Source: Candidatus Ornithocaccomicrobium faecavium (GTDB lineage: Bacteria > Bacillota > Clostridia > Christensenellales > Aristaeellaceae). Taken from it: a DNA stretch of 57,688 nucleotides. Below the pieces are notes generated by a model. It was not told the origin of the DNA and ran no database searches. It was given only the letters and a program-made list of their open reading frames with translations. The stretch covers positions 1-57,688 of the forward strand of contig DVOT01000246.1 in the NCBI GenBank assembly GCA_018713425.1, read 5' to 3'. Each line of letters opens with the position of its first letter. Within the stretch, counting starts at the first letter, position 1. Positions 15,281-38,128 of the stretch are shown piece by piece. The position numbers and the translations under genes were made by a program.

Positions 15281-15316
15281 TATAGCGCAAGATTTCTTCG
15301 GTAATCTTGCGCTATA
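15281..15316 (-). terminator. original host terminator of the tRNA-Thr/tRNA-Pro operon, now separated from it by the prophage
   Basis: Stem tatagcgcaagatt / aatcttgcgctata with an 8-nt loop. Lies directly 3' of the displaced tRNA-Pro 3' fragment. Confidence 0.55.
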
Positions 15317-15364
15317 TTTTGGTCGAGGTGACAGGATTTGAACCTGCGACCTTTTGGTCCCGAA
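15312..15364. repeat. left att site: displaced 3' portion of tRNA-Pro(CGG)
   Basis: 53/53 identity with 51578-51630. Covers the tRNA from the anticodon loop to CCA, plus 8 nt downstream. Confidence 0.9.
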
Positions 15365-15485
15365 GGCCATTCGGTTTCCCTGTACCAACAAGCGCAAAAA
15401 TGCACGCCGCTATTGCCTTTGCGGTGGCCTGAAACTTCGCGCCCGACCAGCCGACTTACTCCCGAAAAATTCTTTCCATGGGGAT

Positions 15486-15496
15486 TTCCCCCAATT
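15486..15496. repeat. TTCCCCCAATT motif, candidate arm-type integrase site (left arm)
   Basis: The same 11-mer occurs twice in tandem next to the right att site (51479-51500). Confidence 0.35.
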
Positions 15497-16123
15497 CCAC
15501 TTTAGTTTATACCCATTGCAGCCCGTAGAAAAGCACGGGTATATTCAAAGTATCTGTAATTTCTGTAAAGCCTGTAAAGCATGGTTTTCTTTCTTTAATA
15601 TGCCTAAAAGCGTCTATCCTTACACTTTAATTCAATAACTGTAAAGGAATAAAATAAAGTGTAAATGGAGAAGATACCCACCCCCTAAAATCTGAAGCCC
15701 CGTGCTGTCAACGCCTAAGCCTCTTCCGGTGTCGAATCCCCTTATACGGAAGATCGCGGGCAGGGGGGATAGGGTTCTTCGCCCGTCTGTTTTCGGCAAA
15801 ATCCTGCCGCGCAAAACAATTTCACAGCGTCCCCATAGGGCAAAAATTTTCACCGCTTTCTTATTTCCGCGTTGCCCGCTCCCTCTATTGTCCGCGCTCT
15901 CCCTCCGGGTGCGGCCGTTCAATGACCATGCGCCTTCGCTGCTGCCGCCCGTCATATAGCCCTCTGTGTGGCCTTTGGACGCGGCCGGAAGCTGGCAAGG
16001 CATTCCCATCGTCCCACCGTCGCGCCCGTCCTGCCCGCTTCTACGCGCCCGCCTACGGCGTTTTTGCTGGCAGTCAAGTGCATTTCCCCGTCCGGCTCGC
16101 AGAAAAACGCCGTACAGGGGCGC

Positions 16124-16164
16124 AAAAAAAGCGGCGCTATCCCCGGTTTCCCAAGGATAGCGCC
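16124..16164 (-). terminator. intrinsic terminator ending the lysis operon
   Basis: 10-bp stem ggcgctatcc / ggatagcgcc followed, on the minus strand, by TTTTTTT (16124-16130). Confidence 0.7.
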
Positions 16165-16177
16165 CTCTGGTAGGTCT

Positions 16178-16396
16178 TTAGTTCTGTTCTTCCTGCACTT
16201 CCGGCAGGCCTGCAATGCTGGTCAGCAGCGACAGGATGCCGGCCAGCGCCGCCGCACTGGCGACCATGCCCCAGTTAACTTCGCCCAGTACCACGCTGGA
16301 GCCGATTGTCGCAACGGCAGTCTGGGCGACCGTCTTGACCGCCCGCACGCCCGCAGCTTTGATCCAGCTTTTCCAATAGCTCGCGCCCTTGTTCAT
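16178..16396 (-). CDS. phage holin (phi LC3 / LL-H-like)
   Basis: 72 aa. [15 protein letters not shown] motif, TM segments and a charged C-terminus. GGGAGGG lies 7 nt upstream of ATG 16396. Confidence 0.7.
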
Positions 16397-16415
16397 ATGC
16401 ATTCCCTCCCTTCGC

Positions 16416-16736
16416 TCATTGCAGCCCTGCCCGCGTCAGGGCATACGTTATGATCGCGGTGACGATGATCTTGATGGCCGTACTCACCGCGTTTTCCCAA
16501 CGCCGCGCCGGCCTGCCCTTGATTTCCTCGATGTCGCCCGTCAGCGCGTCCACCTTGTTGCTGGTCGATTTCTGTTCGTGCGCAAGCAGTTCGACGTTTG
16601 TGGCCAGCTTATGCACACTTTCCGCGATGGCCTTCGCCTCGCCGATCTGGTTAAACATGGTCTTGATCTGCTCTGTGTGGCGCGTCACCCTCTCGTCGAG
16701 GGCGACGTACTTTTGCGTCAGTTCTTCACTGTTCAA
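16416..16736 (-). CDS. XhlA-like lysis-associated protein
   Basis: Coiled-coil N-terminus plus a single C-terminal TM ([19 protein letters not shown]). Sits between endolysin and holin. TTG start after GGAGGTGG. Confidence 0.6.
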
Positions 16737-17736
16737 CGTCCACCACCTCCGCGTACTTATTGCTCACCCATGCCGTGCCGTCGCCCACGGCGATGCAGTG
16801 CCAGCCGTTGCGTGCGGTGGCGATATGCGCGTACCGCTCGCCCGCATGGACGATCGTCAATACGCCGTAGCCGGTCGCCGGCCCCTTCCGAGCATTGACG
16901 CTGCCGCCGGTGATGACGACGGCCGGTTCGCCGCTCTCTGGCGCGCCCGGCGTTTCCTCTTCGTCGGTCTCGCCCTCTGCGGCGCTCACGGCTTCCATCA
17001 GCGCCGCGTGCGTCAGCGGGCCATACTCGCCGTCGGCTTCCAGCTTGTGGTCGCGCTGGAAGGCCTTGACCGCCGCTTCTGTCTCCGCGCCATACTCGCC
17101 ATCGGTGCCGTATGCTGGCAGCGCGTAGCCCAGCGCGATCAGCTGTGCTTGCAGTTCCCGCACGTCAATGCCGGCGCAGCCTCGCTTCAGCAGTCGTTCG
17201 CCCAGCGTGCCGGCGATCTCCGCGCCGCTGCCCTCCCCGCCGGTGATCCAGCGAATGGCCATAAAGTAGCGGCGCGACTTGCTGGCCCGGCTGGCGCAGT
17301 AGGCGCGCACGTCCTTGATGGTCGGCCCGGTGCCGCTTCCGTGCCCTGCGCACTTGCCGTTGCCGATGTACATTTCAACGTGCCCCACGTCGAGCGCGTG
17401 GCCGCTGTTGCCTTTGAAATACAGGCAGTCGCCGGGCAGAAGGTTGTTTTCGTTTGGATAGCAGCCGTCGGTCTGGTCTACGATTGCGCCGTTCGCGCGG
17501 TTCTTGATCTGCGCGTTGGTGTTGCTGCCGATGTTGATGCCGGCCACGGCGCGGATCGCGGCGGCGACGGCCGCGGAACAGTCCGAAAAGCCCGCCTGCG
17601 TTGTGTTGCCGACGATGTTGTCCGGGTATCCGAAGAAATACGTGCGCTTCGCGCCCTGCGTGTAGCTGTTCTTCTTCTGGCGGCTCCGCATCAGCTGCGC
17701 AGCCTGCGCGCGCATCGCCTCATAGTCCTTTGCCAT
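16726..17736 (-). CDS. endolysin: NlpC/P60-type peptidase + PG_binding_1 + SH3 domains
   Basis: DCSAAV...HVEMYIG Cys/His peptidase cues. LQAQLIALGY...AVKAFQRDHKL peptidoglycan-binding repeat. C-terminal SH3-like VNARKGP...WVSNKY. Alternative start at 17745. Confidence 0.8.
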   Translation of the reverse strand: MAKDYEAMRAQAAQLMRSRQKKNSYTQGAKRTYFFGYPDNIVGNTTQAGFSDCSAAVAAAIRAVAGINIGSNTNAQIKNRANGAIVDQTDGCYPNENNLLPGDCLYFKGNSGHALDVGHVEMYIGNGKCAGHGSGTGPTIKDVRAYCASRASKSRRYFMAIRWITGGEGSGAEIAGTLGERLLKRGCAGIDVRELQAQLIALGYALPAYGTDGEYGAETEAAVKAFQRDHKLEADGEYGPLTHAALMEAVSAAEGETDEEETPGAPESGEPAVVITGGSVNARKGPATGYGVLTIVHAGERYAHIATARNGWHCIAVGDGTAWVSNKYAEVVDVEQ

Positions 17737-17750
17737 GTCGATCATTCCTT

Positions 17751-17918
17751 TCAAATGTTCCGCTCAATCTCGCGCAGCAGCGCCCCGCGCTGCCGTTCGA
17801 TTTCTCCATCGCTGGTTTCGATGCCGTGTTCCGCCAAAAGGCTGGCCTGCCGGCGAATGATCTGCTGCGCCCTGTCCAGCAGATCGCACAGCCGGCAGAT
17901 GAGTTCAAGGTTGCTCAT
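17751..17918 (-). CDS. small phage protein (55 aa), unannotated in the ORF track
   Basis: GGGAGGAAGTGAGG then ATG 17918. Sequence MSNLELICRLCDLLDRAQQIIRRQ... Its stop lies next to the endolysin start. Confidence 0.45.
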   Translation of the reverse strand: MSNLELICRLCDLLDRAQQIIRRQASLLAEHGIETSDGEIERQRGALLREIERNI

Positions 17919-17921
17919 GCC

Positions 17922-18014
17922 TCACTTCCTCCCGTTTGCCGATAGCAGTGCCGCCATCAGAATACCTGCAAATATGCAGACAGGGATAATCCAAATCAGA
18001 TGCAGCGCGTTCAT
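17922..18014 (-). CDS. 30-aa single-TM micro-protein
   Basis: The ATG overlaps the upstream stop (ATGA). Sequence MNALHLIWIIPVCIFAGILMAALLSANGRK. Confidence 0.4.
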   Translation of the reverse strand: MNALHLIWIIPVCIFAGILMAALLSANGRK

Positions 18015-18424
18015 GGCGCGAATTCCTCTGCCTCTGCGTCTGCTGCCTCGCTGCCCGGCGCGCTCGGCCAGACGATGCTGAAGGGGAATCCGTCCTGTTC
18101 CGGCAGGTTTCTGAGCGCCTGCCGGTACTGCGCCCATTCGCCGATCAGCGCCTCGCCCAGGGCCTTGAGAAAGCCCAGCCAGGCGGTAAAAGTGCTCCCA
18201 CTCGGCGCAACCAGCCCCAGCCGGTCGAGCGCGACTTCCGCGTCGCTGTCTTTCAGCAGGCGGTTGCGGATGCTGCGCGCCAGCGCGGCGGCGGTCTCTT
18301 CGTCCTGGGCTTCGATCGCCAGGTTCAGCGCCACGCGCTGCACGTCGGGCATTTCGGAGCGCTGCCGGTCGGCGATGGCCTCCATGCGGGCCTGGCGCAG
18401 GCTGTCGTTCGTCGTGATGCTCAT
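18011..18424 (-). CDS. hypothetical phage protein (possible fibre chaperone, XkdW-like position)
   Basis: AAGGAGGG then ATG 18424. The start overlaps the RT stop. Acidic C-terminus. Confidence 0.55.
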   Translation of the reverse strand: MSITTNDSLRQARMEAIADRQRSEMPDVQRVALNLAIEAQDEETAAALARSIRNRLLKDSDAEVALDRLGLVAPSGSTFTAWLGFLKALGEALIGEWAQYRQALRNLPEQDGFPFSIVWPSAPGSEAADAEAEEFAP

Positions 18425-19758
18425 TGTATCCCTCCTTTGATGTCGTCGAGGATCGCCGCGAACCATTTATCCATGCTCCGCAGCAGTTCGCGGGTATTCC
18501 CGCACGCCATGTGCGCGCGCCATCCGGCATAGTGGCGGCGCAGGCTGTCAAGGTCGGCGTTACCCGCTGCCACTCGCCGGCCCATGCGCTTCAGCCGGCG
18601 CTTTTCAGCGGCGGCAATGCCCGGCGCGGCCCGCAAAATCACCTTGCCCGTGGGCGTCAGCCGGAAATGCCAGCGCAGGAAAATGAATCCCTTGCGCAGC
18701 CGGATGAATTGCGATTTCGGGTTTAATTCCAGCCCCAGCGCGTCGAGGCGTTCAGCGATGCCGCGCACGGCGCGCCGCAGTCTTTCGGGATCGGGGTCGT
18801 AAAGGATAAAGTCGTCCATGTAGCGCGCATACACGGCGACGCGCGCTTCTTCCTTTGCGTAGTGATCCACGGCGTTCAGTTGCGCAAGCTGTACCAGTTG
18901 CGATATTTGGCTGCCCAGTCCGATGCCGCGGCCATCGCCATGCAGCGCTTCGTCCATGATGGCGGCCCGATCTTCCTGCGAAAGCCCCGGCGTGCGGCGT
19001 ACTGCCTGCGCGATTTGCCGCTCGCGTTCGCGCAGGATTCCGTCGCGCTCGCCTTCCGGGCGCAGCGGCAGGCTTTCCCGCTCGACGCGGGCGTCGGTGA
19101 TCGCTCTGGCGGCTTTTGCGGCGGCAGGCGTCGGCGCGCCCACGGCGATCAGGCGCGCTTCCCACCATTCTTCGCCGAAACTCTCCACTACGGCGCAGAA
19201 GAACGCCGCCAGCCGGTCGCTGGCCACAGCCTTGCGCAGCGTCGCCTTGGCGACGCTGAAGCGGCTTGTGGGGAAATACTTGCGAACGTCTCCCTTGTAG
19301 ATGAGCGCATCGGCTTGAAACGGGCCGACGTCTTCGACGCGGCAGCCTGCCGCCCGCGCGCGTTCCCGGCGCTGGGCGCGATAGACGCGCCGCAGCCAGT
19401 ATTTCATCCGCTCAATGGCGAAGTCCACGCCTTTGCCGATCTGGCAAGCGCCGTTGTCATGGATGAAGGATCGCGTCAGGATCGGGTAAAGAATATTGTC
19501 GCACGCGCTGCGCTGCGCATGGCGGTCGCGGATGCGCGTTGCCGTGATCGACCGCGGCTTGGGCCGGGTGATGGAAAAGCGCATGTAACGCTGTATTTTG
19601 TAGCGCCCGGCCTTCAGATCGGCGCGCAGACGGGCGCTGTTTTCCAGCCCGTCGCTACGGTAGACGGCGGTTCCGTCCTTCCACATGGTGCCAGCGCAGC
19701 ACTTCTTCAGCGCCCGGTACAGGTTGCGCAGCTTAATCGCTTCCTCGAATTGATCCAT
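18421..19758 (-). CDS. DGR reverse transcriptase
   Basis: GIGLGSQISQL (DGR-type [ILV]GxxxSQ motif), YMDDF catalytic motif, GDVRKYFPT and CQIGKG. Probable start ATG 19758 (MDQFEEAIKLRNLY). The ORF is open to 19881. Confidence 0.85.
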   Translation of the reverse strand: MDQFEEAIKLRNLYRALKKCCAGTMWKDGTAVYRSDGLENSARLRADLKAGRYKIQRYMRFSITRPKPRSITATRIRDRHAQRSACDNILYPILTRSFIHDNGACQIGKGVDFAIERMKYWLRRVYRAQRRERARAAGCRVEDVGPFQADALIYKGDVRKYFPTSRFSVAKATLRKAVASDRLAAFFCAVVESFGEEWWEARLIAVGAPTPAAAKAARAITDARVERESLPLRPEGERDGILRERERQIAQAVRRTPGLSQEDRAAIMDEALHGDGRGIGLGSQISQLVQLAQLNAVDHYAKEEARVAVYARYMDDFILYDPDPERLRRAVRGIAERLDALGLELNPKSQFIRLRKGFIFLRWHFRLTPTGKVILRAAPGIAAAEKRRLKRMGRRVAAGNADLDSLRRHYAGWRAHMACGNTRELLRSMDKWFAAILDDIKGGIQ

Positions 19759-19941
19759 AAAAAGGCCGCCGTGATAGCGGGAACGCGCCTTGCAGCGCGC
19801 CCGCATCGGCGGCAGTTGTTCCCCCTTTTCTCGGGGCAGGGCAAACGCCTCCTTGCACTTCGCGGCGCTGTTTTCGGGCATTGCTCTGCATTTGTCAAAA
19901 GCATCTTGGCGAATGCCTTACTCGAATGACGGGCCATTGAA

Positions 19942-20066
19942 GCAAGCCGCCGCCAGCCCGTACCCGTTGTTCGCGTTGTTGTTATTCAAAGCCCCCGAAG
20001 GGTTCACGTTGCGAACGTTGTTGGCGTTCCACGGGTTAGGCGACCGCAGCCACCAGTAACGGGCGG
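19942..20066 (-). repeat. DGR template repeat (TR)
   Basis: 125 bp matching VR except at 12 positions. All 12 are A in TR on the minus strand. Contains the run AAT AAC AAC AAC GCG AAC AAC. Confidence 0.9.
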
Positions 20067-20093
20067 GGACAGACAGGCGTTTCCCTGTTCTCA

Positions 20094-20672
20094 TTATGGG
20101 GCCATGCCCGCGCCTCTGGGCGGTTTGGCTGGCCCGCGATCGGGACTTCGGCCGGCGGCGCGCTTGGCGTCGCTGGCCATCAGCCCTTCAATGAGACCTT
20201 TTTCGCGCACGGCCATGTCGAAGAAAATTTCAAAGATGCGGTCGATGTCGTCCTGTGACAAGACCTTGCGGCCGCCGCGGTGCTTGCGCTTGTGCGGCGT
20301 GGCGGTGGACTGCTGCGGCGCTTCGACCGACGGTGACGCCTGCTTCACCGCGTTAAAGCCGCGAAGCATCATTTCGTATTTGATGCTCAACAGCACCTTC
20401 ATTTCCGTCAGGTGGTCGAGCGCGCGGCGCAGCAGCGCTTCGCGCTCCGCAAACTGGGCGGGATCGGCAAGATCGCGCCGTGCGTTCGCCTGTTTCGCGC
20501 AGGTCAGCACGCCTTTCGCCGCCGTCCACAGATCGCCGGTCACGATCCAGCGCTCGCGCCGCGTAAAAAGCCGTTCGTCCTTGCACCATTTCAACGTCCA
20601 CGCCGCCAGTCTTGTGGCCAGCGTGATGTATTCGGCTTTGCTGGCCTGCCGCAAATATGCGGGTACCGCCAT
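20094..20672 (-). CDS. accessory variability determinant-like protein (Avd position), with extra C-terminal region
   Basis: Lies between the target gene and TR. The first ~110 aa are helical and basic. Assignment is by position rather than by motif. Confidence 0.45.
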   Translation of the reverse strand: MAVPAYLRQASKAEYITLATRLAAWTLKWCKDERLFTRRERWIVTGDLWTAAKGVLTCAKQANARRDLADPAQFAEREALLRRALDHLTEMKVLLSIKYEMMLRGFNAVKQASPSVEAPQQSTATPHKRKHRGGRKVLSQDDIDRIFEIFFDMAVREKGLIEGLMASDAKRAAGRSPDRGPAKPPRGAGMAP

Positions 20673-20723
20673 ATCGTTGCCCCCTTGACGCGCCTATCGG
20701 CGCGGATGGTCGATGGGCTGCAT

Positions 20724-20746
20724 CTGTGCGCGGCCGTAACGCACAG
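20724..20746. promoter_or_regulatory. hairpin immediately 3' of the target gene/VR
   Basis: 7-bp inverted repeat ctgtgcg / cgcacag with a 9-nt loop. Lies 13-35 nt beyond the stop codon (20759-20761). Confidence 0.4.
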
Positions 20747-20758
20747 TGCGGCCCGGTA

Positions 20759-21967
20759 TCAGTAGATGACGCAAGCCGCCGCCAGCCCGTACCCGCCGCT
20801 CGCGTCGCCGCCATTCAAAGCCCCCGAAGGGTTCACGTAGCGAACGTTGCTGGCGCTCCACGGGTAAGGCGACCGCAGCCACCAGTAACGGGCGGTTGTC
20901 GGGCTTGCGATGTCGTATTTGATCTTGTCGGTTTCGCTGGCCCCGTCGTAGTAGGGCAGCACGCTGCCTTCGCTGATGCTGTTTTCGGGGCCATAGCCCA
21001 TTTCAACGCGGCTGGGCAGCCAAAAGCGGTCGCGCGTGGTGTAGGTGCCCGTGATCGTGCCGTTTACGTCGTAGACGGTGTTGTAGGCCGTCACGTTGTC
21101 CACGGGGCCGACGGCGGCAAGAAAATCCGCGTCCAGCCCGTTCAGGAAGCCGGGCTGGTTGGCGTAGTTCGGTTTCAGGTCAAAGATGGTCTGTTTTGTC
21201 CACCATGCGTTCGCGGCCGCGTCGCTGTTGAGCCACTGCCGGGCCGCGCTCTCGCCCCAGTGGTTCGAACCGTAGGCGCGGCGCATGACGGAATTAAACT
21301 TGCCTACCGTGTCCACGATGTCGCCCTGCGCGTTGCTGGCCGTGCCCAAGCTGGTGCCGCCGCTCCCGGCAGTGACGGTCAGGTTGCCTTCGATCTGGTT
21401 GCCGCTTGCATCGTAGGTCGTCACGACGCCGGACGTGATGTTCTCCGGCTTGTAGTTCGCCGTGTCTTCGTACCAGTTGCCGACCTTGTTGTGCGTCCAT
21501 CCGCCGCCGGCGGGGATCGGCTCGGTGGTCGTAAATTGATAGGTACCGTCTTCTTCTGTCCGTCCGCTGTTGCCGCCCTTGTACAGCGTGAAGTTGTACG
21601 TTCCCGCGGGCAGGGCGCTTTCGCCCGTGTTGGCCCACAGCATTTCCGAAGCGTCGATCATGCGCCCGTAGATGCAGGCGTGCATCAACAACGTCATGGT
21701 GGGTGCGCTGTCGTCGCCCGGCTTTTTGTGCTGGTTGTGGGCTACGACGTCCCATTCAATGGATGTGTAGGACGAATGGGCGGACGTCAGGCGCGCGCCC
21801 ACGGGGAACGCCTTCGGCCCCAGCCCGTTGCGCACGATCTGCTGCACGGATTCCCAGCTTTCGATGTTCGCCGCGCTGCCCGCCTGCGCGATGGCAATCA
21901 GCCCCAGCGCGTCGGCGATCCGCCGGCCCGTTTCGTCTAAGATGATCGGTTTTGTGATTTCGCTCAT
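20759..21967 (-). CDS. DGR target protein, probable receptor-binding tail fibre/tip protein
   Basis: AGGAGGAGG then ATG 21967, overlapping the upstream stop (ATGA). 402 aa with the VR at the extreme C-terminus. The upstream 278 aa of ORF 20759..22801 is an Arg/Gly-rich artefact. Confidence 0.8.
   Translation of the reverse strand: MSEITKPIILDETGRRIADALGLIAIAQAGSAANIESWESVQQIVRNGLGPKAFPVGARLTSAHSSYTSIEWDVVAHNQHKKPGDDSAPTMTLLMHACIYGRMIDASEMLWANTGESALPAGTYNFTLYKGGNSGRTEEDGTYQFTTTEPIPAGGGWTHNKVGNWYEDTANYKPENITSGVVTTYDASGNQIEGNLTVTAGSGGTSLGTASNAQGDIVDTVGKFNSVMRRAYGSNHWGESAARQWLNSDAAANAWWTKQTIFDLKPNYANQPGFLNGLDADFLAAVGPVDNVTAYNTVYDVNGTITGTYTTRDRFWLPSRVEMGYGPENSISEGSVLPYYDGASETDKIKYDIASPTTARYWWLRSPYPWSASNVRYVNPSGALNGGDASGGYGLAAACVIY
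20771..20895 (-). repeat. DGR variable repeat (VR)
   Basis: Last 125 coding nt of the target gene, ending 9 nt (three codons) before the stop codon. Encodes ARYWWLRSPYPWSASNVRYVNPSGALNGGDASGGYGLAAAC. Confidence 0.9.
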
Positions 21968-22740
21968 GTTGCCTCCTCCTGTTCGTTGTAGGTCACGCAC
22001 AGCGCGCCGTCTACCACGCTGATGCCCAGCGCGGCCCGTTCGTTTTCGGCGGCTACGCGCTGCTGTTCCGCGCTCACGCGGCCCTGCTCGGCAGTCACGC
22101 GGCCTTGCTCGGCGGTTGCGCGGTCGGTCTCCGCCTCTACGCGGTCGTCCTCTGCGTTCACGCGGGCAGTCTCCGCCTCTTCGCGGTCGTCCTCGGCATT
22201 CGCGCGGGCGGTCTCCGCGGTCACGCGCCCCTGTTCTGCGGTCACACGCCCCTGTTCGGCGCTCGCGCGGGCGCTTTCGGCGCTGGAAATGTCGTCTTCC
22301 AGCTGCTCCATGCTGGCAATCTGCGCCAGCAGATCGTCCAACGAAGGGATGACGTTGCCCGGGTCGATGATGCTGTCCGTCAGCACGTTTCGCACGGGCA
22401 GGATCAGCGCCGCCAGCGTCACCTTCGCGCCCGTGCTGACAGACAGGCGCAGCACCGCCTTCACGTCGCCTTCCTGCGCATAGCACGCCTGCGCCAGTAC
22501 CACGCTGGCCACGTTGCCGGTCATGCTGCCCTGCACGGCCACGGTGTTGCCGTCCGGCCGCACGAAGTACCCCGTCACGCTGCCGGTGACTTGCGCCGCC
22601 TCGCCGCCGTCCAGCACGGTCACGCGCCATGTGTGGGCGTTGTTGTCCCCGCAAAGCATCAGCGCGTTCGGCCATACCTGCGGGGCCTGCGCGCCGCGTT
22701 GCAGGTCGATTTCCTGCTCGATCAGCCAGTTGTTGGCCAT
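21964..22740 (-). CDS. baseplate upper protein (BppU-like) with coiled-coil repeat stalk
   Basis: The N-terminal domain resembles BppU_N (WRVTVLDGGEA...GYFVRPDG). The C-terminus carries AExxRVxAE octad repeats. Confidence 0.55.
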   Translation of the reverse strand: MANNWLIEQEIDLQRGAQAPQVWPNALMLCGDNNAHTWRVTVLDGGEAAQVTGSVTGYFVRPDGNTVAVQGSMTGNVASVVLAQACYAQEGDVKAVLRLSVSTGAKVTLAALILPVRNVLTDSIIDPGNVIPSLDDLLAQIASMEQLEDDISSAESARASAEQGRVTAEQGRVTAETARANAEDDREEAETARVNAEDDRVEAETDRATAEQGRVTAEQGRVSAEQQRVAAENERAALGISVVDGALCVTYNEQEEAT

Positions 22741-22769
22741 GGTTTCCTCCTTCCTCGCTGGTCGCGTTC

Positions 22770-25241
22770 CTAGTAGTCGCCGCCGCCCACGCTTTGCACA
22801 AACGCCTGCACGAACAGATTCGCTTCGATGCGCGTCAGCCCGTTGGGCACGATTTCGATTTCATGCCACGTTCCGCGCGTGATCTTGCCGTCGTCGTCCT
22901 TTTCCAGATAGGCAACGATGTCCATCTCGCTGTCCGTCAGCGCGGAAGCGGGCACCACGTTGCCGTCCACCTTCAGCGTCACGCTGCTGGCCGTGTCGCC
23001 CTCGTAGATGCCGTAGACGATCTCATGCGTGTGGTCGGCCAGCGTTAGGTCGTGCGTGTGGGCCGGGATGTTCACACTGTGCGTATGGCTTGGTGTCTCG
23101 AAAACGTGGCTGTGCGCCGGGATGGCGATGTCCTGCGCCGGGATCGTGACCACGCAAACCACGTTGTGCATGTGGCTGAAATTGTGGTAGTGCTGCATGC
23201 TGTGCGTATGCGCGGGAACCGTGTGGGTGTGTTCCATGCCGTGCGTGTGCGCGGCCATGCGGTGGTTGTGTTCGCCGCCCGTCGATGTGCTGCCCCCGCC
23301 CGCGTCGGTCGTATAGATGCGCGAACCGCCGCCGTTGGTGACGGCGTTCCCCGTCAGCCCGCCGCCCGCGGAATTGGTCGTCAGCGATGTGCTGCCGGTA
23401 GTGCCGGTGCCCGAATATCCCGTGTTGCCGCTGATGCTCACATTGTGGGTCGCGTTCGCGCTTACACCGCCCGTTATCGTAGACGTACCCGGATCGCTGA
23501 TGCGGTGATAGTGCCCGTTCGCCAACGAATCGCTGCCGGAAAAACTGTGCCGGTGGCTGGGGCCGCTGTGCGAATGGCTGTCGATGCTGTGCGTATGGCT
23601 GGGGCCGTAATGGAAGTGCCCCATGCCGTGATTGTGGTCGGAAATGGTGTGGCTATGCCCGCCGGCGCTGAGCGTGGTAATCATGCTGTTGCTCGAATCC
23701 GTGGTCAGCAGGCTGCTGTTTCCCGTTTCGCCGCTCCCACCGCTGCCGGTCGTGGACATGGAATCGCCTCCGACGCCCAGCGCGTAGCCGGTGTTGCCGC
23801 TTGTGCTGCCGCTGTGCCCGGACTGTGAAGGCCCCGTCGCCGCCGTGGTGGTGACGACCTTCTGCTCGATCGTCTGCGCATACGCGCCGCCGCTGTTGCT
23901 CGTTCGCTCGCTGCCTCCCCCTGATGAGCTAGTCTGCGTGCTGGCCCCGCCGCTGGACGTGGTGGTGGCCGTCGCGCCGCCCGCTGCCGCGCCCGTCTCA
24001 TAGGCCCGGAAGGCTTCCATCTGCCACGACAGCAGCATTTGATTAATGCGCACGCATCCGCTGGGCACATAAACGCGCATCTTTGCCGGGTGCTGCGCGT
24101 CGGCATTGTCGGCGTACTGCTGACTGTACAGGTTCGTCGCCCCTTGGCTGTACAGTTCGCTGATGCCCATGCGGTCGGCCAGCGTGTTGATGCTGTCCGC
24201 CGCGTCGCGTGGCGCGTTGGCGATGGTGATGTCGATTTCGCCCGGCCTGCCGCGCACGTCGCTTTTGGCGATGGACACGATCCGCGCGTCGAAGTCGATT
24301 CCGTGTTCGCCGTCCAGCACGCGCACCAGCTTGCCGGGCATGTGCTTGTCCCATTCCTGCCCAGTCAGGCGCGTCAGATCGACAGCCGACGCCGTATAGC
24401 TGATATACGGGTTTTTCAGGCGATTCAGCAGCGCGACGCCGCGCGCCTTCAGCGTGGCGGCGTCTTCGATGCGCGTGTCCGCGTAGACGCTGCTCTTCAC
24501 GCCCCACACGTTCTTCGTGTCCGCGTCGATGTAGGGCACGCCGCCGTTGATGTCGCGGATCGTCAGCTGGTTCACGCCCTCGCCGTAGCCCAGCATGTAC
24601 AGCCGCGTCACCAGCGTGCTGGCGTCCATTTCCTTTTCCACCTCGACCATGTTCCGGCGGTAGTGGATGCCGCAGCCGGGCGTGGTGTCCGCGTGCTTCA
24701 GGCTCACCGTCCACGGCGATGCGCTCGTGTCGAACACCCATGTGTATTCGTCCGTCAGCACGTTGCCCAGCGACAGAAGCGCCGAAAGCAGCGACGTGTT
24801 TTCAAACTTGTAGGCAAACTGATCGCTGTATTCGCACTCGCCCAAAACCCAGCGTTCCGTATGCTGCTGGTCGAGAATATACTGGATCACCTGCGCCGTG
24901 GTCACGCCCGGCCCGCCGATCTCATGGTAGCCGAACAGCACGTCGTCCAGCAGCGTGGCCATGACGTGTTCCAAGCTGTACGTCTTCACCCCGCCGGCTG
25001 CCGTCTCTTCGCCGGAAGGCATCCCGATGATGCGATACAGGCCCGTGTCCCGCGCGCCGTCCGGCAGATGCACCAGATTGTGCGCTTGGCACAGGCTGTT
25101 CTTCGGATCACCGCTGGGCAGCGTGAAGGACGCCGTCCACAGGTCATTGTGAACCAGATTGTAGGCGACCTCGCCCGCGTTCTCCAAGACGCCCAGCATC
25201 TCGCCGTCCTGATTGTAGACGGTTACATATTCGCAGTTCAT
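22770..25241 (-). CDS. tail-associated protein (Tal; prophage endopeptidase-tail family N-terminus) with His-rich C-terminal half
   Basis: AGGAGG then ATG 25241. Follows Dit. 17 HxH motifs in two blocks separated by Gly/Ser/Thr linkers. Confidence 0.7.
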   Translation of the reverse strand: MNCEYVTVYNQDGEMLGVLENAGEVAYNLVHNDLWTASFTLPSGDPKNSLCQAHNLVHLPDGARDTGLYRIIGMPSGEETAAGGVKTYSLEHVMATLLDDVLFGYHEIGGPGVTTAQVIQYILDQQHTERWVLGECEYSDQFAYKFENTSLLSALLSLGNVLTDEYTWVFDTSASPWTVSLKHADTTPGCGIHYRRNMVEVEKEMDASTLVTRLYMLGYGEGVNQLTIRDINGGVPYIDADTKNVWGVKSSVYADTRIEDAATLKARGVALLNRLKNPYISYTASAVDLTRLTGQEWDKHMPGKLVRVLDGEHGIDFDARIVSIAKSDVRGRPGEIDITIANAPRDAADSINTLADRMGISELYSQGATNLYSQQYADNADAQHPAKMRVYVPSGCVRINQMLLSWQMEAFRAYETGAAAGGATATTTSSGGASTQTSSSGGGSERTSNSGGAYAQTIEQKVVTTTAATGPSQSGHSGSTSGNTGYALGVGGDSMSTTGSGGSGETGNSSLLTTDSSNSMITTLSAGGHSHTISDHNHGMGHFHYGPSHTHSIDSHSHSGPSHRHSFSGSDSLANGHYHRISDPGTSTITGGVSANATHNVSISGNTGYSGTGTTGSTSLTTNSAGGGLTGNAVTNGGGSRIYTTDAGGGSTSTGGEHNHRMAAHTHGMEHTHTVPAHTHSMQHYHNFSHMHNVVCVVTIPAQDIAIPAHSHVFETPSHTHSVNIPAHTHDLTLADHTHEIVYGIYEGDTASSVTLKVDGNVVPASALTDSEMDIVAYLEKDDDGKITRGTWHEIEIVPNGLTRIEANLFVQAFVQSVGGGDY

Positions 25242-25253
25242 GTTTGCCGCCTC

Positions 25254-25526
25254 CTAGCGGCGCGACGGCCGTTCCAACACGCCGTCCGGCGGCGCGTCCA
25301 CAGGCTCCACATGGCCGCCGTCAATGATCTCCGCTATGGCGTATAGTTCGTTGGCCTGCCGCGCGGACTGCACCGCCAGCACGGCCATGGCGCAGCCGCC
25401 GGGCGTGTTCCACGCGCATTCGGACAGGCAACGCGCGCCGCGCATGGGGCAGTACGGTGTCGTTGGCCTTGCCGGTCTTGCCGGCGGGTCATGCCGCTTG
25501 CCTAGCTGTGTTTTGGATGGTAGCAT
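25254..25526 (-). CDS. hypothetical phage protein (Cys-containing, 90 aa)
   Basis: GGGAGG lies 8 nt upstream of ATG 25526. Sits between Dit and Tal. Confidence 0.4.
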   Translation of the reverse strand: MLPSKTQLGKRHDPPARPARPTTPYCPMRGARCLSECAWNTPGGCAMAVLAVQSARQANELYAIAEIIDGGHVEPVDAPPDGVLERPSRR

Positions 25527-25528
25527 GC

Positions 25529-26320
25529 TCAAAACCTCCCTCTCGCCTTGATGGTGATCTTTGCGCCCTTTGTGCCGCTGCCGTAGGCCAGCGTCGCGCT
25601 GATGCTCTGCGGCCCGTGCCGGGCGGTCAGATAGTCGAAGCGCGCCGCATAGGGCAGCGCGTTTTCGCCGTCTGAAAATGCCGCTCCGATGGGCGGCTCC
25701 ATGTCGATGAGCAGCGCATCGCCCGACGCGATGTTCATGCCGGAAAGCTGCACGGCGTTTCCGCCTGCCGTCAGCGTTACGCCGGTGATCGGCGCTGCGC
25801 CTGTGTTCAGCACTTCCGCGCGGATCGGCGCGGGCGCGCCGGTCGCCAGCACGAAGTTGACCTGCGCGCTGGTGCCGCTGGTCGTCGCGCTTGCCGTCGT
25901 TTCGTCGAGCGCGTAGGCATAGGGCTGCGCCGTGAAGGTCACGTCCAGCCCGCCGTCGATCCAGTCCGAAAAGCCCCAGTTCAGTTCGTCGTCCACGCTT
26001 GCCATGTAATAGCGCAGCGGCTCATAGTCGAATATAAGCCGCTGCCGCCCGTTCGTCAGCCATGCCGCGATGCGCCGAAGCTGCTGCTGCGCCGCCGCCT
26101 GCGAAGGCGGATCGCGCAGGAAGAACAGCGTGCCGTCAAATTCCAGCGTTTCGGGCAGGTCGCCGGGCATCAGGATCGTGCCCGGCGTGCCGGAAATATC
26201 GTATTCGTTCCGACGGATTTTGGGTGCGATCGTGTGCCCTTTGTTTTCCACATAGATGCAGCCAAAGTCCCGCAGGCAGTGCAGTCCGCCGAAGGAAAAG
26301 TTGATCTCGTTCAGGTTCAA
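25529..26320 (-). CDS. distal tail protein (Dit, siphovirus tail component)
   Basis: Position after the tape measure. The N-terminus (NFSFGGLHCLRDFG...ISGTPG) is typical of the Sipho_tail family. Start is probably TTG 26320 after GGGGAG. The ORF is open to 26338. Confidence 0.7.
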   Translation of the reverse strand: MNLNEINFSFGGLHCLRDFGCIYVENKGHTIAPKIRRNEYDISGTPGTILMPGDLPETLEFDGTLFFLRDPPSQAAAQQQLRRIAAWLTNGRQRLIFDYEPLRYYMASVDDELNWGFSDWIDGGLDVTFTAQPYAYALDETTASATTSGTSAQVNFVLATGAPAPIRAEVLNTGAAPITGVTLTAGGNAVQLSGMNIASGDALLIDMEPPIGAAFSDGENALPYAARFDYLTARHGPQSISATLAYGSGTKGAKITIKARGRF

Positions 26321-26330
26321 GGCTATCTCC

Positions 26331-26379
26331 CCAATCAAAAGGCACCCTGCCCTTTCGGGTGGGTGCCTTGGTCGGTTTG
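26331..26379 (-). repeat. hairpin-plus-RBS cassette, copy 1
   Basis: ~50 bp, ~90% identical to 38076-38125. On the minus strand: GCACCCACCC-GAAA-GGGCAGGGTGC, a T-run, then TTGATTGG + SD. Confidence 0.7.
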
Positions 26380-26383
26380 CTGA

Positions 26384-26608
26384 TTATGCGCTGGCGCGCA
26401 TCTGCATCAAGGTGCTGGTGGCTTCGTCCAGTTCCGCGCGGGTGTTCTGCAAGGCCTTGCGGATCATGCCCAGCGCGTCGTCGATGTATTCGCCGTTCGC
26501 CATGTGCTGCGCGCCCATCTGCATGATCTCGATGCAGGCGCACAGCCCCTTCAGGGTGTTGTCTACGTCTTCCAGCGCGTTGACCGCGCGCATACGGATT
26601 TCATTCAT
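26384..26608 (-). CDS. 74-aa acidic helical protein of unknown function (cassette effector)
   Basis: AAGGAGG 7 nt before ATG 26608. No motif I recognise. Confidence 0.6.
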   Translation of the reverse strand: MNEIRMRAVNALEDVDNTLKGLCACIEIMQMGAQHMANGEYIDDALGMIRKALQNTRAELDEATSTLMQMRASA

Positions 26609-26635
26609 CGTTCTGCCTCCTTCTGGCTTTCGGGG

Positions 26636-26664
26636 TTGACCTTTCGGGGCAGGTATGATAAAAT
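26636..26664 (+). promoter_or_regulatory. strong plus-strand promoter inside the minus-strand cassette
   Basis: TTGACC (26636-26641), 17-nt spacer, TGaTAAAAT extended -10 (26656-26664). Confidence 0.55.
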
Positions 26665-26670
26665 TTACTT

Positions 26671-26741
26671 GCCGGTCGAAAGGTCGGTGCCTGGGGTTTC
26701 GGTGTTGCTTGCTGGGGCAACCGAAACCCTATTTTTCTTTT
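26671..26741 (+). ncRNA. candidate ~70-nt antisense sRNA
   Basis: Predicted TSS ~26671. Terminator stem gggtttcggtgttgc / gcaaccgaaaccc (26694-26729), then TATTTTTCTTTT. No ORF. Antisense to the RHH 3' end and the intercistronic region. Confidence 0.4.
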
Positions 26742-26896
26742 AGCCCCGCATAGACTTGTTCCACGCCGCGGCGCAAGACCTCTGCTTTGGACAGGTTGAG
26801 CCGTTCCATGCAATAGTTTAACTTCCGAACGGTCTCTGCGTCCATGCGTGCGCTTACTTGCGTCCCTTTGGGATTTTCTATCTTGGGGCGTCCCAT
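26729..26896 (-). CDS. ribbon-helix-helix (Arc/CopG-type) DNA-binding protein
   Basis: MGRPKIENPKGTQVSARMDAETVRKLNYCMERLNLSKAEVLRRGVE matches the RHH beta-alpha-alpha pattern. Start ambiguous: in-frame GTG 26917, ATC or ATT nearer the GAGGTG SD. Confidence 0.65.
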   Translation of the reverse strand: MGRPKIENPKGTQVSARMDAETVRKLNYCMERLNLSKAEVLRRGVEQVYAGLKEK

Positions 26897-26920
26897 TTTG
26901 GCGCTAATGATTAACACCTC

Positions 26921-26963
26921 ACTTTCTGACTGTCATTATATAACATGACAGTCAGAAAGTCAA
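26921..26963 (-). promoter_or_regulatory. consensus promoter embedded in a 16-bp-arm inverted repeat (operator)
   Basis: Minus strand TTGACT (26963-26958), 17-nt spacer, TATAAT (26940-26935). Arms actttctgactgtcat (26921-26936) and atgacagtcagaaagt (26945-26960). Confidence 0.65.
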
Positions 26964-26973
26964 CCCCCAATTT

Positions 26974-26999
26974 CAAAAGCGTCTGCGCAGACGCTTTTG
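26974..26999. repeat. palindrome caaaagcgtctgcgcagacgcttttg, copy A
   Basis: Perfect palindrome AAAAGCGTCTGC|GCAGACGCTTTT, 10 nt after the tape-measure stop. Confidence 0.9.
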
Positions 27000-27009
27000 C
27001 GCCGCTTCA

Positions 27010-31419: not shown

Positions 31420-31462
31420 GTTCTCACCTCACATTCGCCCTTGCGTATCGCGGGCCAGAAAA

Positions 31463-31485
31463 GCGCCCGTCGTATCGGCGGGCGC
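31463..31485 (-). terminator. terminator-like hairpin between chaperone and tape-measure genes
   Basis: gcgcccg / cgggcgc stem, followed by TTTTC on the minus strand. Confidence 0.4.
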
Positions 31486-31520
31486 AAAATTTCAAATTTG
31501 ATGAATAGCCAGCATACGAC

Positions 31521-31544
31521 AAAAGCGCCCGCGCGGGCGCTTTT
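31521..31544. repeat. perfect 24-bp palindrome aaaagcgcccgcgcgggcgctttt
   Basis: Same AAAAGCG...CGCTTTT design as the four-copy palindrome, with a different core. Lies 4 nt after the frameshift-product stop. Confidence 0.8.
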
Positions 31545-31547
31545 GAT

Positions 31548-32158
31548 TTATCTCGGAATCCTGTTTAGCCGTTGCCCCCGCGGCGCTGCGCCCGCGGTTG
31601 CCTGTCCGCGCTGCGCGCGATTTCCCTTGCCGGTGCTGGCCGCCGGCTTGCGCGCAGTCTTCGCGCATTCGTAGATTTCATAAATCGCGCGCGGGCTGGC
31701 GTCCCAAAAAGCTTCCGCCGTCAACCCGCAGTCCAGCGCGCGATACAGCAGCCACGCCCACGGGAAGCCGCTTTCCGCCGGGGCGGCTTCTAAGGGTTTT
31801 CGTTGCCGCCGCTGTCCTTCGGCAGCGCGTCCACTACGCCCTGCACGATGATCTCCCGAATGCCTTCAATGGAATCCAGCTTGAACAGATTGTCGAAGGT
31901 TTCCCAGTCCATTTCCGCGCCGCCGGCAATAAGCGCGCCGTAAAAGACAGCCATCACGGCTTTGTACTTGAAGTTCGCCAGCGCCTTCAAAATTTCGGTA
32001 TAGCCCACGTCGCGGCCGTAGACCTGTTCGTACACGTCTTCCGCCACGCGGGCGGCGCGGTTGGTAAAGGCCAGCTTGTAGCGCGTTCCGTCGAGCGTGA
32101 TAAACTGAATTGGCGCGCTTACGTCGCGCGCGCGCTGCTGTTTTTGCATATTTTCCAT
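31548..32158 (-). CDS. tail assembly chaperone frameshift product (gpGT-like), -1 shift at A_AAC_CCT (31799-31793)
   Basis: The slippery X_XXY_YYZ heptamer lies immediately before the zero-frame TAG. The -1 frame stays open for 83 further codons with protein-like sequence (FPWAWLLYRALDCGLTAEAFWDASPRAIYEIYE). Confidence 0.6.
31790..32158 (-). CDS. tail assembly chaperone (gpG-like)
   Basis: GGAGGG then ATG 32158. 122 aa, between the major tail and tape-measure genes. Confidence 0.7.
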   Translation of the reverse strand: MENMQKQQRARDVSAPIQFITLDGTRYKLAFTNRAARVAEDVYEQVYGRDVGYTEILKALANFKYKAVMAVFYGALIAGGAEMDWETFDNLFKLDSIEGIREIIVQGVVDALPKDSGGNENP

Positions 32159-32275
32159 GTCAGCCCTCCGTTTTTTGCCTTGTCATAGCCGCGATCAGGC
32201 CGCTGCGGCGCTCTGGTTTGCAGTGCGATCGCGGGATTCCTTCGGGGCGGCGTTTGCCGCCCCGTTCCCGAATGG

Positions 32276-32857: not shown

Positions 32858-32876
32858 GGTTGTGCCTCCTGTCGCT

Positions 32877-33221: not shown

Positions 33222-33225
33222 TTCG

Positions 33226-33630: not shown

Positions 33631-33631
33631 G

Positions 33632-33961: not shown

Positions 33962-34053
33962 TCGCCCGTCACCCCGCTTTCAGCGGCGCGCCGGGTACGC
34001 GGCTGCGGACGGCTGCGCCGTGTCCTCGCCGCTAGTCGCTTTCGCTCCCTCAT
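33958..34053 (-). CDS. possible 31-aa Arg-rich coupled micro-ORF
   Basis: Its ATG overlaps the connector stop (ATGA) and its stop overlaps the adaptor GTG (GTGA). Flanked by 19-bp direct repeats. Confidence 0.25.
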   Translation of the reverse strand: MRERKRLAARTRRSRPQPRTRRAAESGVTGE

Positions 34054-34337: not shown

Positions 34338-34348
34338 GCTGTCACCCC

Positions 34349-38125: not shown

Positions 38126-38128
38126 TTT

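Follow-up and report, generated by a model that had tools for sequence, protein, structure and literature searches.

To our knowledge, diversity-generating retroelements (DGRs) are the sole natural system of targeted protein hypermutation known in bacteria and phages, and gut viromes are rich in them. The prototype, that of Bordetella phage BPP-1, displays the order mtd(VR)-avd-TR-spacer-brt, which, strand included, is also that of the cassette found in the window, i.e., the whole stretch of 57,688 nucleotides analysed in the present study. In both, the gene for a tail-associated target holds the variable repeat (VR) at its 3' end, the template repeat (TR) follows immediately on the accessory gene, differences between TR and VR are restricted to adenines and concentrated in AAC codons, and the repeats share an A-free, GC-rich 3' end, similar to IMH/IMH*, past which they diverge. 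A small, basic, helical accessory protein and a structured RNA in the spacer between TR and reverse transcriptase (RT) are likewise common to both systems, and 3' of the VR the window has a candidate counterpart of the GC hairpin, its tetraloop of the GRNA type, whereas the target is a DUF6273 protein in the window and Mtd in BPP-1. The Roseburia phage Shimadzu (LR596903) resembles the window in cassette order and in the location within the tail module, but was reported to diversify two proteins (PMC11792537), while the window holds one VR only. For the Faecalibacterium prophages Lelie, Roos, Pioen and CP11 and the nd4/nd12 'tentaclins', DUF6273 proteins were described as DGR targets in which the C-terminal end of this domain holds the VR (PMC11792537; PMC10743442). 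These, too, are temperate phages of gut Clostridia, with RTs 31-34% identical to that of the window, but nucleotide similarity between their DGRs and the window is limited to a TR/VR core of ~100 nt. When the 3.6-kb cassette was compared with the phage collection at the nucleotide level, just matches of ~100 nt to this core were found, in three records.

The cassette is situated in the tail/lysis module of a prophage integrated at a tRNA-Pro gene (51586-51662), the 3' part of which is overlapped by the right att copy. The att repeats agree at 58 of 59 positions, and its genes include those for integrase, terminase, portal, capsid, tape measure and tail proteins. A GH2 beta-galactosidase gene flanks the prophage; its product had one match at 98% identity, below which came matches of ~62% to assorted Clostridia. 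All cassette elements (Table 1) lie on the minus strand in the canonical order target(VR)-accessory-TR-spacer-RT, with every component present and intact. The original prediction had read the repeat pair as the mark of a DGR, and this reading is supported by the complete canonical cassette and by an RT whose best solved relative is the BPP-1 RT. It is almost certain that the pair belongs to a genuine, functional and recently active DGR in a siphovirus-like, temperate prophage whose host is an uncultured, high-GC member of the gut Clostridia. The element is of a well-known and widely catalogued kind, to which its lineage adds a few twists, namely an insertion of ~34 aa in the Avd-like protein, insertions of ~18 and ~78 aa in the RT, and an RT-2-like spacer that scores below threshold.

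Table 1. Position, strand and characteristics of the DGR cassette elements and their host prophage in the window.
Feature	Position	Strand	Characteristics
Host prophage	15306..51630		~36 kb, carries the DGR cassette, 59-nt direct repeat at both ends
DGR reverse transcriptase	18421..19758	-	445 aa from conserved MD(Q/E)F start
Structured spacer RNA, TR to RT	19759..19941	-	183 nt, five conserved helices
Template repeat (TR)	19942..20066	-	26 adenines, 11 AAC codons in VR frame
Accessory gene, divergent Avd-like	20094..20672	-	192 aa, pI 10.1, four-helix bundle
Hairpin/cruciform candidate, GC-only stem	20689..20704	-	CGCGCC-GATA-GGCGCG, predicted
DGR target gene	20759..21967	-	402 aa; ORF, start ATG 21967, ribosome-binding site
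Variable repeat (VR)	20771..20895	-	encodes the target's last 41 residues (359-399 of 402 aa), then VIY-stop
IMH-like, A-free, GC-rich VR 3' end	20771..20789	-	CGGGCTGGCGGCGGCTTGC; seen in sequence

The adenine-specific pattern of the repeat pair is directly evidenced. Aligned with MAFFT on the minus strand, TR and VR gave 125 columns with no gaps and 12 mismatches (coding-strand positions 30, 40, 46, 57, 84, 85, 87, 88, 90, 97, 99 and 100), each of which corresponds to an A in the TR (A>G in ten cases, A>T in two). The pair had originally been aligned by eye, and its length, the number of differences and of TR adenines, and the restriction of all differences to adenines are thereby confirmed; the tabulation by TR base proposed as a check returned neither a non-A mismatch nor an indel. 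With a TR composition of A26 C39 G39 T21, the probability of 12 randomly chosen sites all being A is 5.5e-10. In the frame of the VR the TR contains 11 AAC codons, two of which are unchanged and nine recoded to TAC, AGC, AGC, TAC, GGC, GGC, GAC, AGC and GGC, exactly as predicted, so that the VR peptide reads ARYWWLRSPYPWSASNVRYVNPSGALNGGDASGGYGLAAACVIY*. The other adenine-bearing codons of the TR are one AAT, unchanged, and two TAC. Because adenines are thus confined to AAC, AAT and TAC codons, no stop codon can be reached, and the theoretical diversity amounts to up to ~2e15 peptide variants without stops (~4.5e15 at the DNA level). A search of the window with all A masked and three more mismatches permitted per 40-mer detected no further TR-like copy, second VR or remote target.

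The repeat finder extended the paired stretches to 129 nt (19938-20066 and 20767-20895), with a single additional mismatch (TR T, VR G) at position 126, right beyond the shared GC-rich end. This end is an identical 19-mer which also closes the TR (19942-19960); past it the two sequences part at once, with GTCATCTAC in the VR and TTCAATGGC in the TR. Throughout the clade an A-free, GC-rich end is kept at both repeats. By sequence it resembles IMH/IMH*, and the IMH/IMH* of BPP-1 offers an analogy for its function (PMC5758913). The candidate hairpin is placed 3' of the VR and directly 5' of the ribosome-binding site of the accessory gene, and is invariant across six diverged relatives, with a GATA or GGTA loop. 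DGR target hairpins were reported to possess a GRNA loop and a stem of 7-10 bp at a distance of 4-34 nt from the VR (Guo et al., 2011; PMC3240598). The GATA loop fits this consensus, whereas the stem has 6 bp (8 bp in BPP-1) and the hairpin is separated from the VR by 66 nt in the lineage of the window compared with 21-23 nt in relatives. A second structure, a 7-bp stem with a 9-nt loop in a 45-nt insert right after the stop codon, was rejected as target hairpin and is unconserved in relatives.

The start codon of the target gene is preceded by AGGAGGAGG. The protein is composed of N-terminal helices, a beta-rich body and a C-terminal DUF6273 domain (Pfam PF19789; 78.4 bits, cut-off 23.5; residues 228-400), which bears the VR; PF19789 is present in all full-length target homologs among the matches listed, and the target also matches phrog_19280. 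Its AF2 model reached a pLDDT of 89.9, and the best BFVD matches were phage DUF6273, tail-collar and receptor-binding proteins. A C-type-lectin fold of the Mtd/TvpA type was unconfirmed for the VR domain in a Foldseek search of the PDB. The variants would fall on the presumed ligand-binding face of a tail-associated protein.

The accessory protein is the component for which a different reading retains most weight. Its AF2 model consists of four long helices, the third and fourth of which are joined by a disordered, basic loop of ~34 aa. The protein owes its length of 192 aa, compared with 128 aa in BPP-1, to this loop and a tail. Curated models returned nothing: no match was obtained in Pfam (E up to 10, PF22296 included), NCBIfam or PHROG, nor in Pfam for any of 27 family members, and hhalign against bAvd was not significant. 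The protein could hence be an unrelated, new DGR accessory factor, a helical bundle without homology to Avd, and in addition to the failed models and the unusual length the Foldseek result can be quoted in favour of this, since four-helix bundles match each other easily and the top five hits, all chains of 2gsc (TM 0.79), had an E of only 0.05. Against it stands the comparison of the family profile with the annotated Avd of Shimadzu, which hhalign aligned over the full length with a probability of 98.4% (E 5.5e-15); the Shimadzu protein measures 136 aa and is devoid of the basic loop. Furthermore, 2gsc, a member of PF05635, was the top match not only in the fold search but, independently, also in a search of PDB sequence profiles (E 0.28 only), five of ten remote relatives gave sub-threshold, full-length matches to PF22296 (bAvd) or PF05635 (23S_rRNA_IVP), and the gene occupies the position of avd and encodes a similarly basic product. 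We therefore regard an origin outside Avd as unlikely, though deserving mention, and class the protein as a putative Avd homolog that is linked to Avd through the Shimadzu protein and the predicted fold only. With hhalign, no relation was detected between the family and the ORFs upstream of the RT in nd12 and in Lelie (orf29). Among 50,697 phage records one weak match to the family was found, and one homolog with 61% identity is labelled Gemmiger sp.

The spacer differs in family from that of BPP-1. RF03022 (Phage_DGR RNA), which scored 104.7 bits on BPP-1 as a positive control, had no match in the window between 19600 and 20900 at E up to 1. Instead, Rfam RT-2 (RF03077) aligned over its full model with 19744-19900 at 32.1 bits (E 6e-6; gathering threshold 40), and comprised the conserved blocks GAAAxCAG, AAGGAG and CCGAUGCGG as well as the nested 3' helices. 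Spacers of relatives scored 33.5, 36.6 and 39.5 bits, all below gathering, whereas the spacer of Shimadzu is a strong RT-2 (144.9 bits) that starts 5 nt past the TR and ends 3 nt before the RT. An RNAalifold consensus comprised 41 pairs with 96.8% of cells paired; compensatory changes occurred at eight pairs, a number which none of 500 shuffles reached, and slid controls gave at most three. By sequence, the spacer of the window is a sub-threshold relative of RT-2. This motif was described as an orphan, RT-associated RNA with no tie to DGRs; of the RT motifs, RT-10 alone was connected with BPP-1, and a role of the others in further DGRs was put forward as speculation (Weinberg et al., 2017; PMC5737381).

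Relatives of the prophage were collected from ENA and Logan assemblies via the accessory protein. From the repeat pair it had been predicted that mutagenic retrohoming took place at least once in the past. This expectation is borne out and exceeded: 18 near-identical copies of the prophage in other metagenomes hold 12 VR alleles, while the TR, covered in 17 of them, is the same as in the window in 16. The comparison of VRs across related prophages, likewise proposed at the outset, gave polymorphism at 23 of 26 TR adenines vs four of 99 non-A sites (Fisher p 5e-18). Hypervariation at adenines is confined to the VR, where pi is 0.093 compared with 0.018 in the remainder of the target gene; three copies (L031, L033 and L034) present 13-15 differences in the VR and none in the remaining 1084 nt of the gene (p 7.5e-16). 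Directional transfer from TR to VR was observed in L021, since both non-A changes of its TR (C66T and T77C) recur in its own VR. Four loci (L008-L011) with near-identical TRs, differing by at most one base (in L009), possess four different VRs. Diverged prophages (54-71% accessory identity) keep the same cassette, with adenine-specific TR/VR mismatches in each, and the adenine bias was seen in five diverged clades. JGI metagenome contigs scanned with the VR-flank pattern for unbiased VR alleles yielded nothing, and genome contigs scanned with the RT yielded one irrelevant fragment (39% identity) in a Cloacimonadota MAG.

These data also bear on whether the window holds a DGR that diversified formerly and is inert now, its VR frozen. 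L032 and L035 carry exactly the VR allele of the window and L037 departs from it at a single site, and decay does occur in related elements: in L014 and L015 a 1.39-kb deletion took the TR and half of the RT and left an adenine-only 'fossil' VR behind, and in L002, L003, L004 and L006 93 nt of the spacer are missing, with one VR allele in the three of these copies that cover the VR (L002, L003 and L004). The window, on the other hand, retains the spacer in full length, its ORFs are intact and no catalytic motif is missing, and relatives with identical TR, spacer and flanks carry the 13-15 VR changes given above, so that the machinery in this exact sequence state must have been active very recently. 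We consider a frozen element quite improbable. Because L032 and L035 possess the same VR allele as the window, what the sequences demonstrate is DGR activity in its lineage rather than in this individual lysogen.

That the pair is an ordinary duplicated segment, diverged by point mutation or gene conversion without reverse transcription, is hardly conceivable: short direct repeats are frequent in the region and a few non-A differences exist in relatives (T105G, C33T, T77C), but the base-specific statistics of the 12 mismatches already refute it, the adenine bias recurs in the 12 alleles and the five clades, the non-coding copy is invariant where the coding copy is hypervariable, and a DGR-type RT adjoins the pair.

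The RT itself matched phrog_1423 (E 9e-75), and its best phage relatives are the DGR RTs of nd12, Shimadzu, nd4, Lelie and BPP-1; Pfam RVT_1 alone stayed below its cut-off (22.1 vs 29.6 bits). The best solved relative, the BPP-1 enzyme (bRT, PDB 8ub7), aligned in two pieces (E 1.3e-23) at ~29-32% identity. PKPR, KGDxxKYF, GLGSQISQL (LGxxxSQ) and YMDD are conserved in the alignments, and PKPR, [I/L]GxxxSQ and YMDD are common to the RTs of window and BPP-1. The [I/L]GxxxSQ motif is diagnostic of DGR RTs. Two clade-specific insertions of ~18 and ~78 aa, the latter a module between motifs 3 and 4, distinguish the RT of the window from that of BPP-1, and neither is found in Lelie or in Shimadzu, the RT of which is ~38% identical. 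The chance that the RT stems from another retroelement (retron, group II intron or Abi/DRT defence RT), the repeat pair being coincidental, is practically nil: many of its phage relatives are annotated as 'retron-type' and NCBIfam gave weak, partial matches to models of group II RT/maturase, Drt2-5 and retron RTs, but these span the palm motifs only and lie far under the cut-offs (TIGR04416 55.8 vs 300, Drt3a 28 vs 200, retron St85 RT 13.7 vs 235), Rfam detected no group II intron or retron RNA, and bRT as best solved relative, the SQ motif, the TR directly upstream and the Avd homolog all point to a DGR. The ORF stays open up to 19881. As the conserved start has no obvious Shine-Dalgarno sequence and lies behind a terminator-like hairpin with a U-tract, expression of the RT may be low.

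A mechanism can be proposed in which a minus-strand operon would be transcribed across accessory gene, TR and spacer; a sigma-70 promoter scan of the cassette returned none. The structure of the spacer RNA would recruit the RT along with the basic Avd-like bundle protein, and TR RNA would serve as the template for a cDNA into which bases are misincorporated at random opposite its adenines. This cDNA would then take the place of the VR in the 3' portion of the DUF6273 target gene, with a 3' boundary that may be set by the A-free, GC-rich end common to both repeats, probably with help from the downstream GC hairpin. VR variants on the tail-associated protein would enable the phage to re-tune its receptor binding. 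Priming from the spacer, a complex of Avd and RT, the roles of IMH and hairpin, and receptor binding by the target are what we infer by homology with BPP-1.

Conceptually, the DGR of the window adds little, but sequence alone documents it unusually well. One prophage with 12 VR alleles, a copied TR variant, a spacer-deletion lineage and a TR/RT-deletion fossil form a clean natural series against which calls of DGR activity could be tested. The accessory family would define an Avd subfamily which current Pfam, NCBIfam and PHROG models miss, so that an automated pipeline would take a cassette of this type for 'Avd-less'. The orphan RT-2 motif, in turn, is now tied to the TR-RT spacer of Firmicutes-phage DGRs. 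More tentatively, and rather as a doubtful possibility than an expectation, the ~78 and ~18 aa of the RT, the ~34 aa loop of the Avd-like protein and the divergent RT-2 spacer might make up a structurally distinct DGR ribonucleoprotein in this clade. If the insertions co-evolved to grip the spacer, RT-2 would be the priming and scaffold RNA of a large lineage of Firmicutes-phage DGRs, and the natural 93-nt spacer deletion of the L002 type, with one VR in the three copies covering it, would represent a ready-made loss-of-function allele.

The locus is best explained as a canonical diversity-generating retroelement (DGR). Aligned on the minus strand, the template repeat (TR, 19942-20066) and the variable repeat (VR, 20771-20895) at the 3' end of the target gene fill 125 columns with 0 gaps and 12 mismatches, and the TR base is an A at 12 of 12 (A>G at ten, A>T at two), which agrees with the original prediction of a gapless pair differing at template adenines exclusively. 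As TR holds 26 A among 125 bases, the probability that 12 random sites would all fall on A is 5.5e-10. Read in the frame of the target gene (20759-21967), the predicted recoding of nine AAC codons was reproduced in every detail (to TAC, AGC, AGC, TAC, GGC, GGC, GAC, AGC and GGC), and two AAC, one AAT and two TAC codons were left unaltered. A repeat finder extended the pair to 129 nt with a sole added mismatch, T/G at position 126, directly after an A-free GC-rich 19-mer common to TR and VR (CGGGCTGGCGGCGGCTTGC). With adenines masked, no additional TR-like copies were found in the window. The 26 mutable adenines correspond to a DNA repertoire of 4^26 (~4.5e15) and a peptide repertoire of ~15^12 x 4^2, i.e. 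2e15, in which no stop codons are reachable. In gene calls the TR shows up as a 58-aa ORF matching DUF6273 (19890-20066(-) in the window; also in relatives, e.g. 3079-3255 in locus L021), an annotation artefact that stems from its mimicry of the target gene's end.

All relevant cassette genes lie intact on the minus strand, and their order exactly matches the annotated cassette of Bordetella phage BPP-1, mtd(VR)-avd-TR-spacer-brt. The cassette is neighboured by a Prophage_tail protein on one side and by a tail-chaperone-like gene, an endolysin and a holin on the other. Since the right copy of the terminal direct repeat reaches into the 3' portion of tRNA-Pro(cgg), the phage integrated into this tRNA gene.

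Features of the DGR cassette and of the prophage carrying it
Feature	Position	Strand	Remarks
Target gene	20759-21967	-	402 aa; strong ribosome-binding site; DUF6273
Accessory ORF	20094-20672	-	192 aa; 86-nt gap after target gene
TR	19942-20066	-	begins 27 nt past accessory ORF
Spacer	183 nt between TR and RT	-	RT-2-like RNA
Reverse transcriptase (RT)	18421-19758	-	phrog_1423; ORF open to 19881
Prophage	15306-51630, ~36 kb		59-nt direct repeat at both ends
Direct repeat, 59 nt	15306-15364 and 51572-51630		58/59 identical
tRNA-Pro(cgg)	51586-51662	-	3' part overlapped by right direct-repeat copy
Tyrosine integrase	50037-51449	+	within prophage

Repeats of other kinds occur nearby. The gene upstream of the target (21964-22740(-)) carries AEQGRVT-type tandem repeats of 21 nt (7 aa) at 22067-22269, and its product has 258 aa versus 293 aa among near-identical relatives, a difference of one 35-aa block that is suggestive of a coiled-coil stalk with a varying number of repeats beside the DGR target. 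In the Prophage_tail protein (22770-25241(-), 823 aa; 715-888 aa across relatives) short His-rich repeats (HSH, HTH and HNH runs) fill the C-terminal half, and TRF detected arrays (39- and 21-nt periods) in its gene at 23183-23273 and 23554-23607. The host flank displays a ribosomal protein L10 leader (10315-10447(-); RF00557, 63.7 bits) and, nearby, genes for a BirA-like ligase (14045-14809) and a GH2 beta-galactosidase (6841-9246), the nearest named relatives of the latter being just ~60% identical; from this flank the host appears to belong to an uncultured lineage of Clostridia.

Related prophages on other metagenome contigs were reached through the accessory protein, for which 41 homologs, none of them annotated, were found on contigs with the same cassette and the same prophage module. 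In five diverged groups, whose accessory proteins are 54-71% identical to that of the window, the TR/VR pairs are gapless and internal mismatches fall almost all at TR adenines, and four of these loci (L008-L011) possess near-identical TRs (at most one base apart, in L009) and four different VRs. Comparison of the VR across related prophages, which had been suggested alongside the original prediction, bore it out: 18 near-identical copies of the window prophage from different samples hold 12 distinct VR alleles, and of the 17 copies that extend over the TR, 16 have it in the same form as the window. When the target genes available in full (15) are compared, polymorphism affects 23 of the 26 VR adenines versus four of the 99 remaining VR positions (Fisher p 5e-18), with a pairwise diversity of 0.093 in the VR versus 0.018 in the remainder of the gene. 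Hypervariation is thus restricted to the VR, most sharply so in three copies (L031, L033, L034) that differ from the window at 13-15 VR sites and at 0 of 1084 nt outside (p 7.5e-16). The direction of transfer is seen in L021, the sole copy with a TR unlike that of the window (C66T, T77C), whose VR bears the same two non-adenine changes, as predicted by unidirectional copying from TR to VR. These comparisons show that the element was very recently active in the window's lineage; this applies to the lineage and not to the individual lysogen, because the window's VR allele is common to two further copies (L032 and L035). In two other loci (L014 and L015, both 5001-5891) a 1.39-kb deletion, which takes out the TR, leaves the first ~70 accessory codons fused with the RT's C-terminal half. 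The orphan VR left behind differs from the TR of the L008 type at adenines only, and therefore represents a fossil DGR.

The reverse transcriptase matches phrog_1423 (E 9e-75), its nearest solved relative is the DGR reverse transcriptase of BPP-1 (8ub7, E 1.3e-23) and among phages it is closest to the DGR RTs of nd12, the Roseburia phage Shimadzu, nd4, the Faecalibacterium prophage Lelie and BPP-1 (30-45% identity). Identity as a group II, retron or DRT enzyme was rejected, the respective models scoring far under their cut-offs. Alignments with Brt (the BPP-1 enzyme), Lelie, Shimadzu and nd12 retain PKPR (Brt R74), KGDxxKYF with the motif-3 aspartate, YMDD and GLGSQISQL (the [I/L]GxxxSQ motif). 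Two clade-wide insertions, of ~18 aa after motif 2a and ~78 aa between motifs 3 and 4, are without counterpart in these four enzymes; by tblastn they were found in no record of a phage record collection, and every match spanning both RT halves was split in two around them. Relatives start at a conserved MD(Q/E)F, although the ORF of the window is open to 19881. An AAGGAGG in the spacer (19759-19870(-)) is perfectly conserved with no start codon after it in relatives, and the RT start codon itself is without Shine-Dalgarno sequence, directly 3' of a long GC helix and a U-tract that score as terminator-like; judged from these elements, translation of the RT may be attenuated or coupled.

The accessory ORF gave no match in Pfam, NCBIfam or PHROGs. 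In its AlphaFold2 model, built on the family alignment, four long helices are accompanied by a floppy tail and by a disordered loop rich in Lys and Arg (residues 107-134). The first five places among its PDB fold matches are taken by the five chains of 2gsc (target TM 0.79), which was confirmed as a member of PF05635 (23S-rRNA-IVP/Avd superfamily). An exhaustive profile search recovered ~165 remote relatives, mostly of 130-145 aa, and five of the ten scanned presented sub-threshold, full-length matches to PF22296 (bAvd) or PF05635. With these relatives included, the profile again placed 2gsc first among PDB sequences (E 0.28) and aligned over the full length with the annotated Avd of Shimadzu (hhalign 98.4%, E 5.5e-15), relative to which residues ~104-137 of the window protein form an insertion; direct hhalign comparison of the accessory protein with bAvd was not significant. 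The pI of 10.1 (9 to 10 in most family members) may be set beside the 9.5 +/- 0.7 of Avd proteins (Wu et al., PMC5758913). We conclude that the accessory protein is an Avd, divergent and enlarged by a basic loop insertion, from a subfamily that escapes the curated models.

At a relaxed Rfam threshold the spacer matches RF03077 'RT-2 RNA' over its full length at 32.1 bits (E 6e-6), which is under the gathering score of 40; the spacers of relatives reach 33.5-39.5 bits. The RNAalifold consensus of eight diverse spacers contains five main helices, and a pair-count test found 96.8% of cells paired and compensatory changes in eight pairs; none of 500 shuffles was as good, and slid controls gave at most three compensatory pairs. 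In Shimadzu RT-2 scores 144.9 bits and extends from 5 nt past the TR to 3 nt before the RT start codon, whereas the BPP-1 spacer belongs to RF03022 instead (104.7 bits). Only RT-10 was tied to a DGR by Weinberg et al., who speculated on other RT motifs for other DGRs (PMC5737381), and a literature search for the RT-2 assignment found no paper. Four loci (L002, L003, L004, L006) carry a 93-nt deletion (window positions 19834-19926) by which the spacer loses the P2 and P3 helices and half of P4, and the three covering the VR (L002, L003, L004) share a single VR allele, which from three samples is suggestive of an inactivated DGR. The deletion is flanked by CGAG microhomology and joins the TR frame to the RT ORF, from which gene callers derive a 527-aa 'DUF6273 (weak)' protein.

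In the target protein Pfam DUF6273 covers residues 228-400 (78.4 bits), and the VR forms the final 41 codons ahead of VIY-stop. The confident AF2 model (pLDDT 89.9) matched other phage DUF6273 proteins, tail-collar fibres and receptor-binding proteins in BFVD, and by analogy with BPP-1 the protein may bind a receptor. In a PDB fold search significance was reached by the top match alone, the Thomasclavelia ramosa IgA peptidase (9qa6, E 9e-9, 380 columns), a modelled likeness which hints that this peptidase shares the domain pair of phage DUF6273 proteins. As the same search gave no Mtd or TvpA match and weak matches of 30 residues only to C-type lectins, the likeness of DUF6273 to a C-type lectin rests on the literature (PMC10743442). 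DUF6273 DGR targets were already known from Faecalibacterium prophages and phages nd4 and nd12 (PMC11792537, PMC10743442).

Downstream of the VR a GC-only hairpin, CGCGCC-G(A/G)TA-GGCGCG (20689-20704), is invariant in six diverged relatives. Compared with the hairpins of Guo et al. (PMC3240598), in which the GRNA loop consensus is functionally important and the stem measures 7-10 bp, its loop fits GRNA but its stem has 6 bp; a role for it would follow from analogy with BPP-1. Relatives have 21-23 nt between VR and hairpin, and a 45-nt insert extends this to 66 nt in the window's lineage. Present in this lineage only, the insert is situated within 20705-20758(-), between the target stop codon and the GATA hairpin, and holds an inverted repeat of its own (7 bp, 9-nt loop). 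Since VR diversification evidently persists in the window's lineage, the system either tolerates the 66-nt spacing or can do without the hairpin here.

On the model of BPP-1, the operon would be transcribed across accessory gene, TR and spacer, and the structured spacer would serve as assembly site for a complex of RT and Avd-like protein. Priming would likewise proceed as in BPP-1, adenines would be misincorporated against during reverse transcription of the TR, and the cDNA would replace the VR with the shared GC-rich segment as 3' boundary. What sets the window's DGR apart is a spacer of RT-2 type together with the loop in Avd and the pair of RT insertions. Such features are of specialist interest, chiefly for annotation, because pipelines would label such cassettes Avd-less, and they may bear on how DGR ribonucleoproteins vary.
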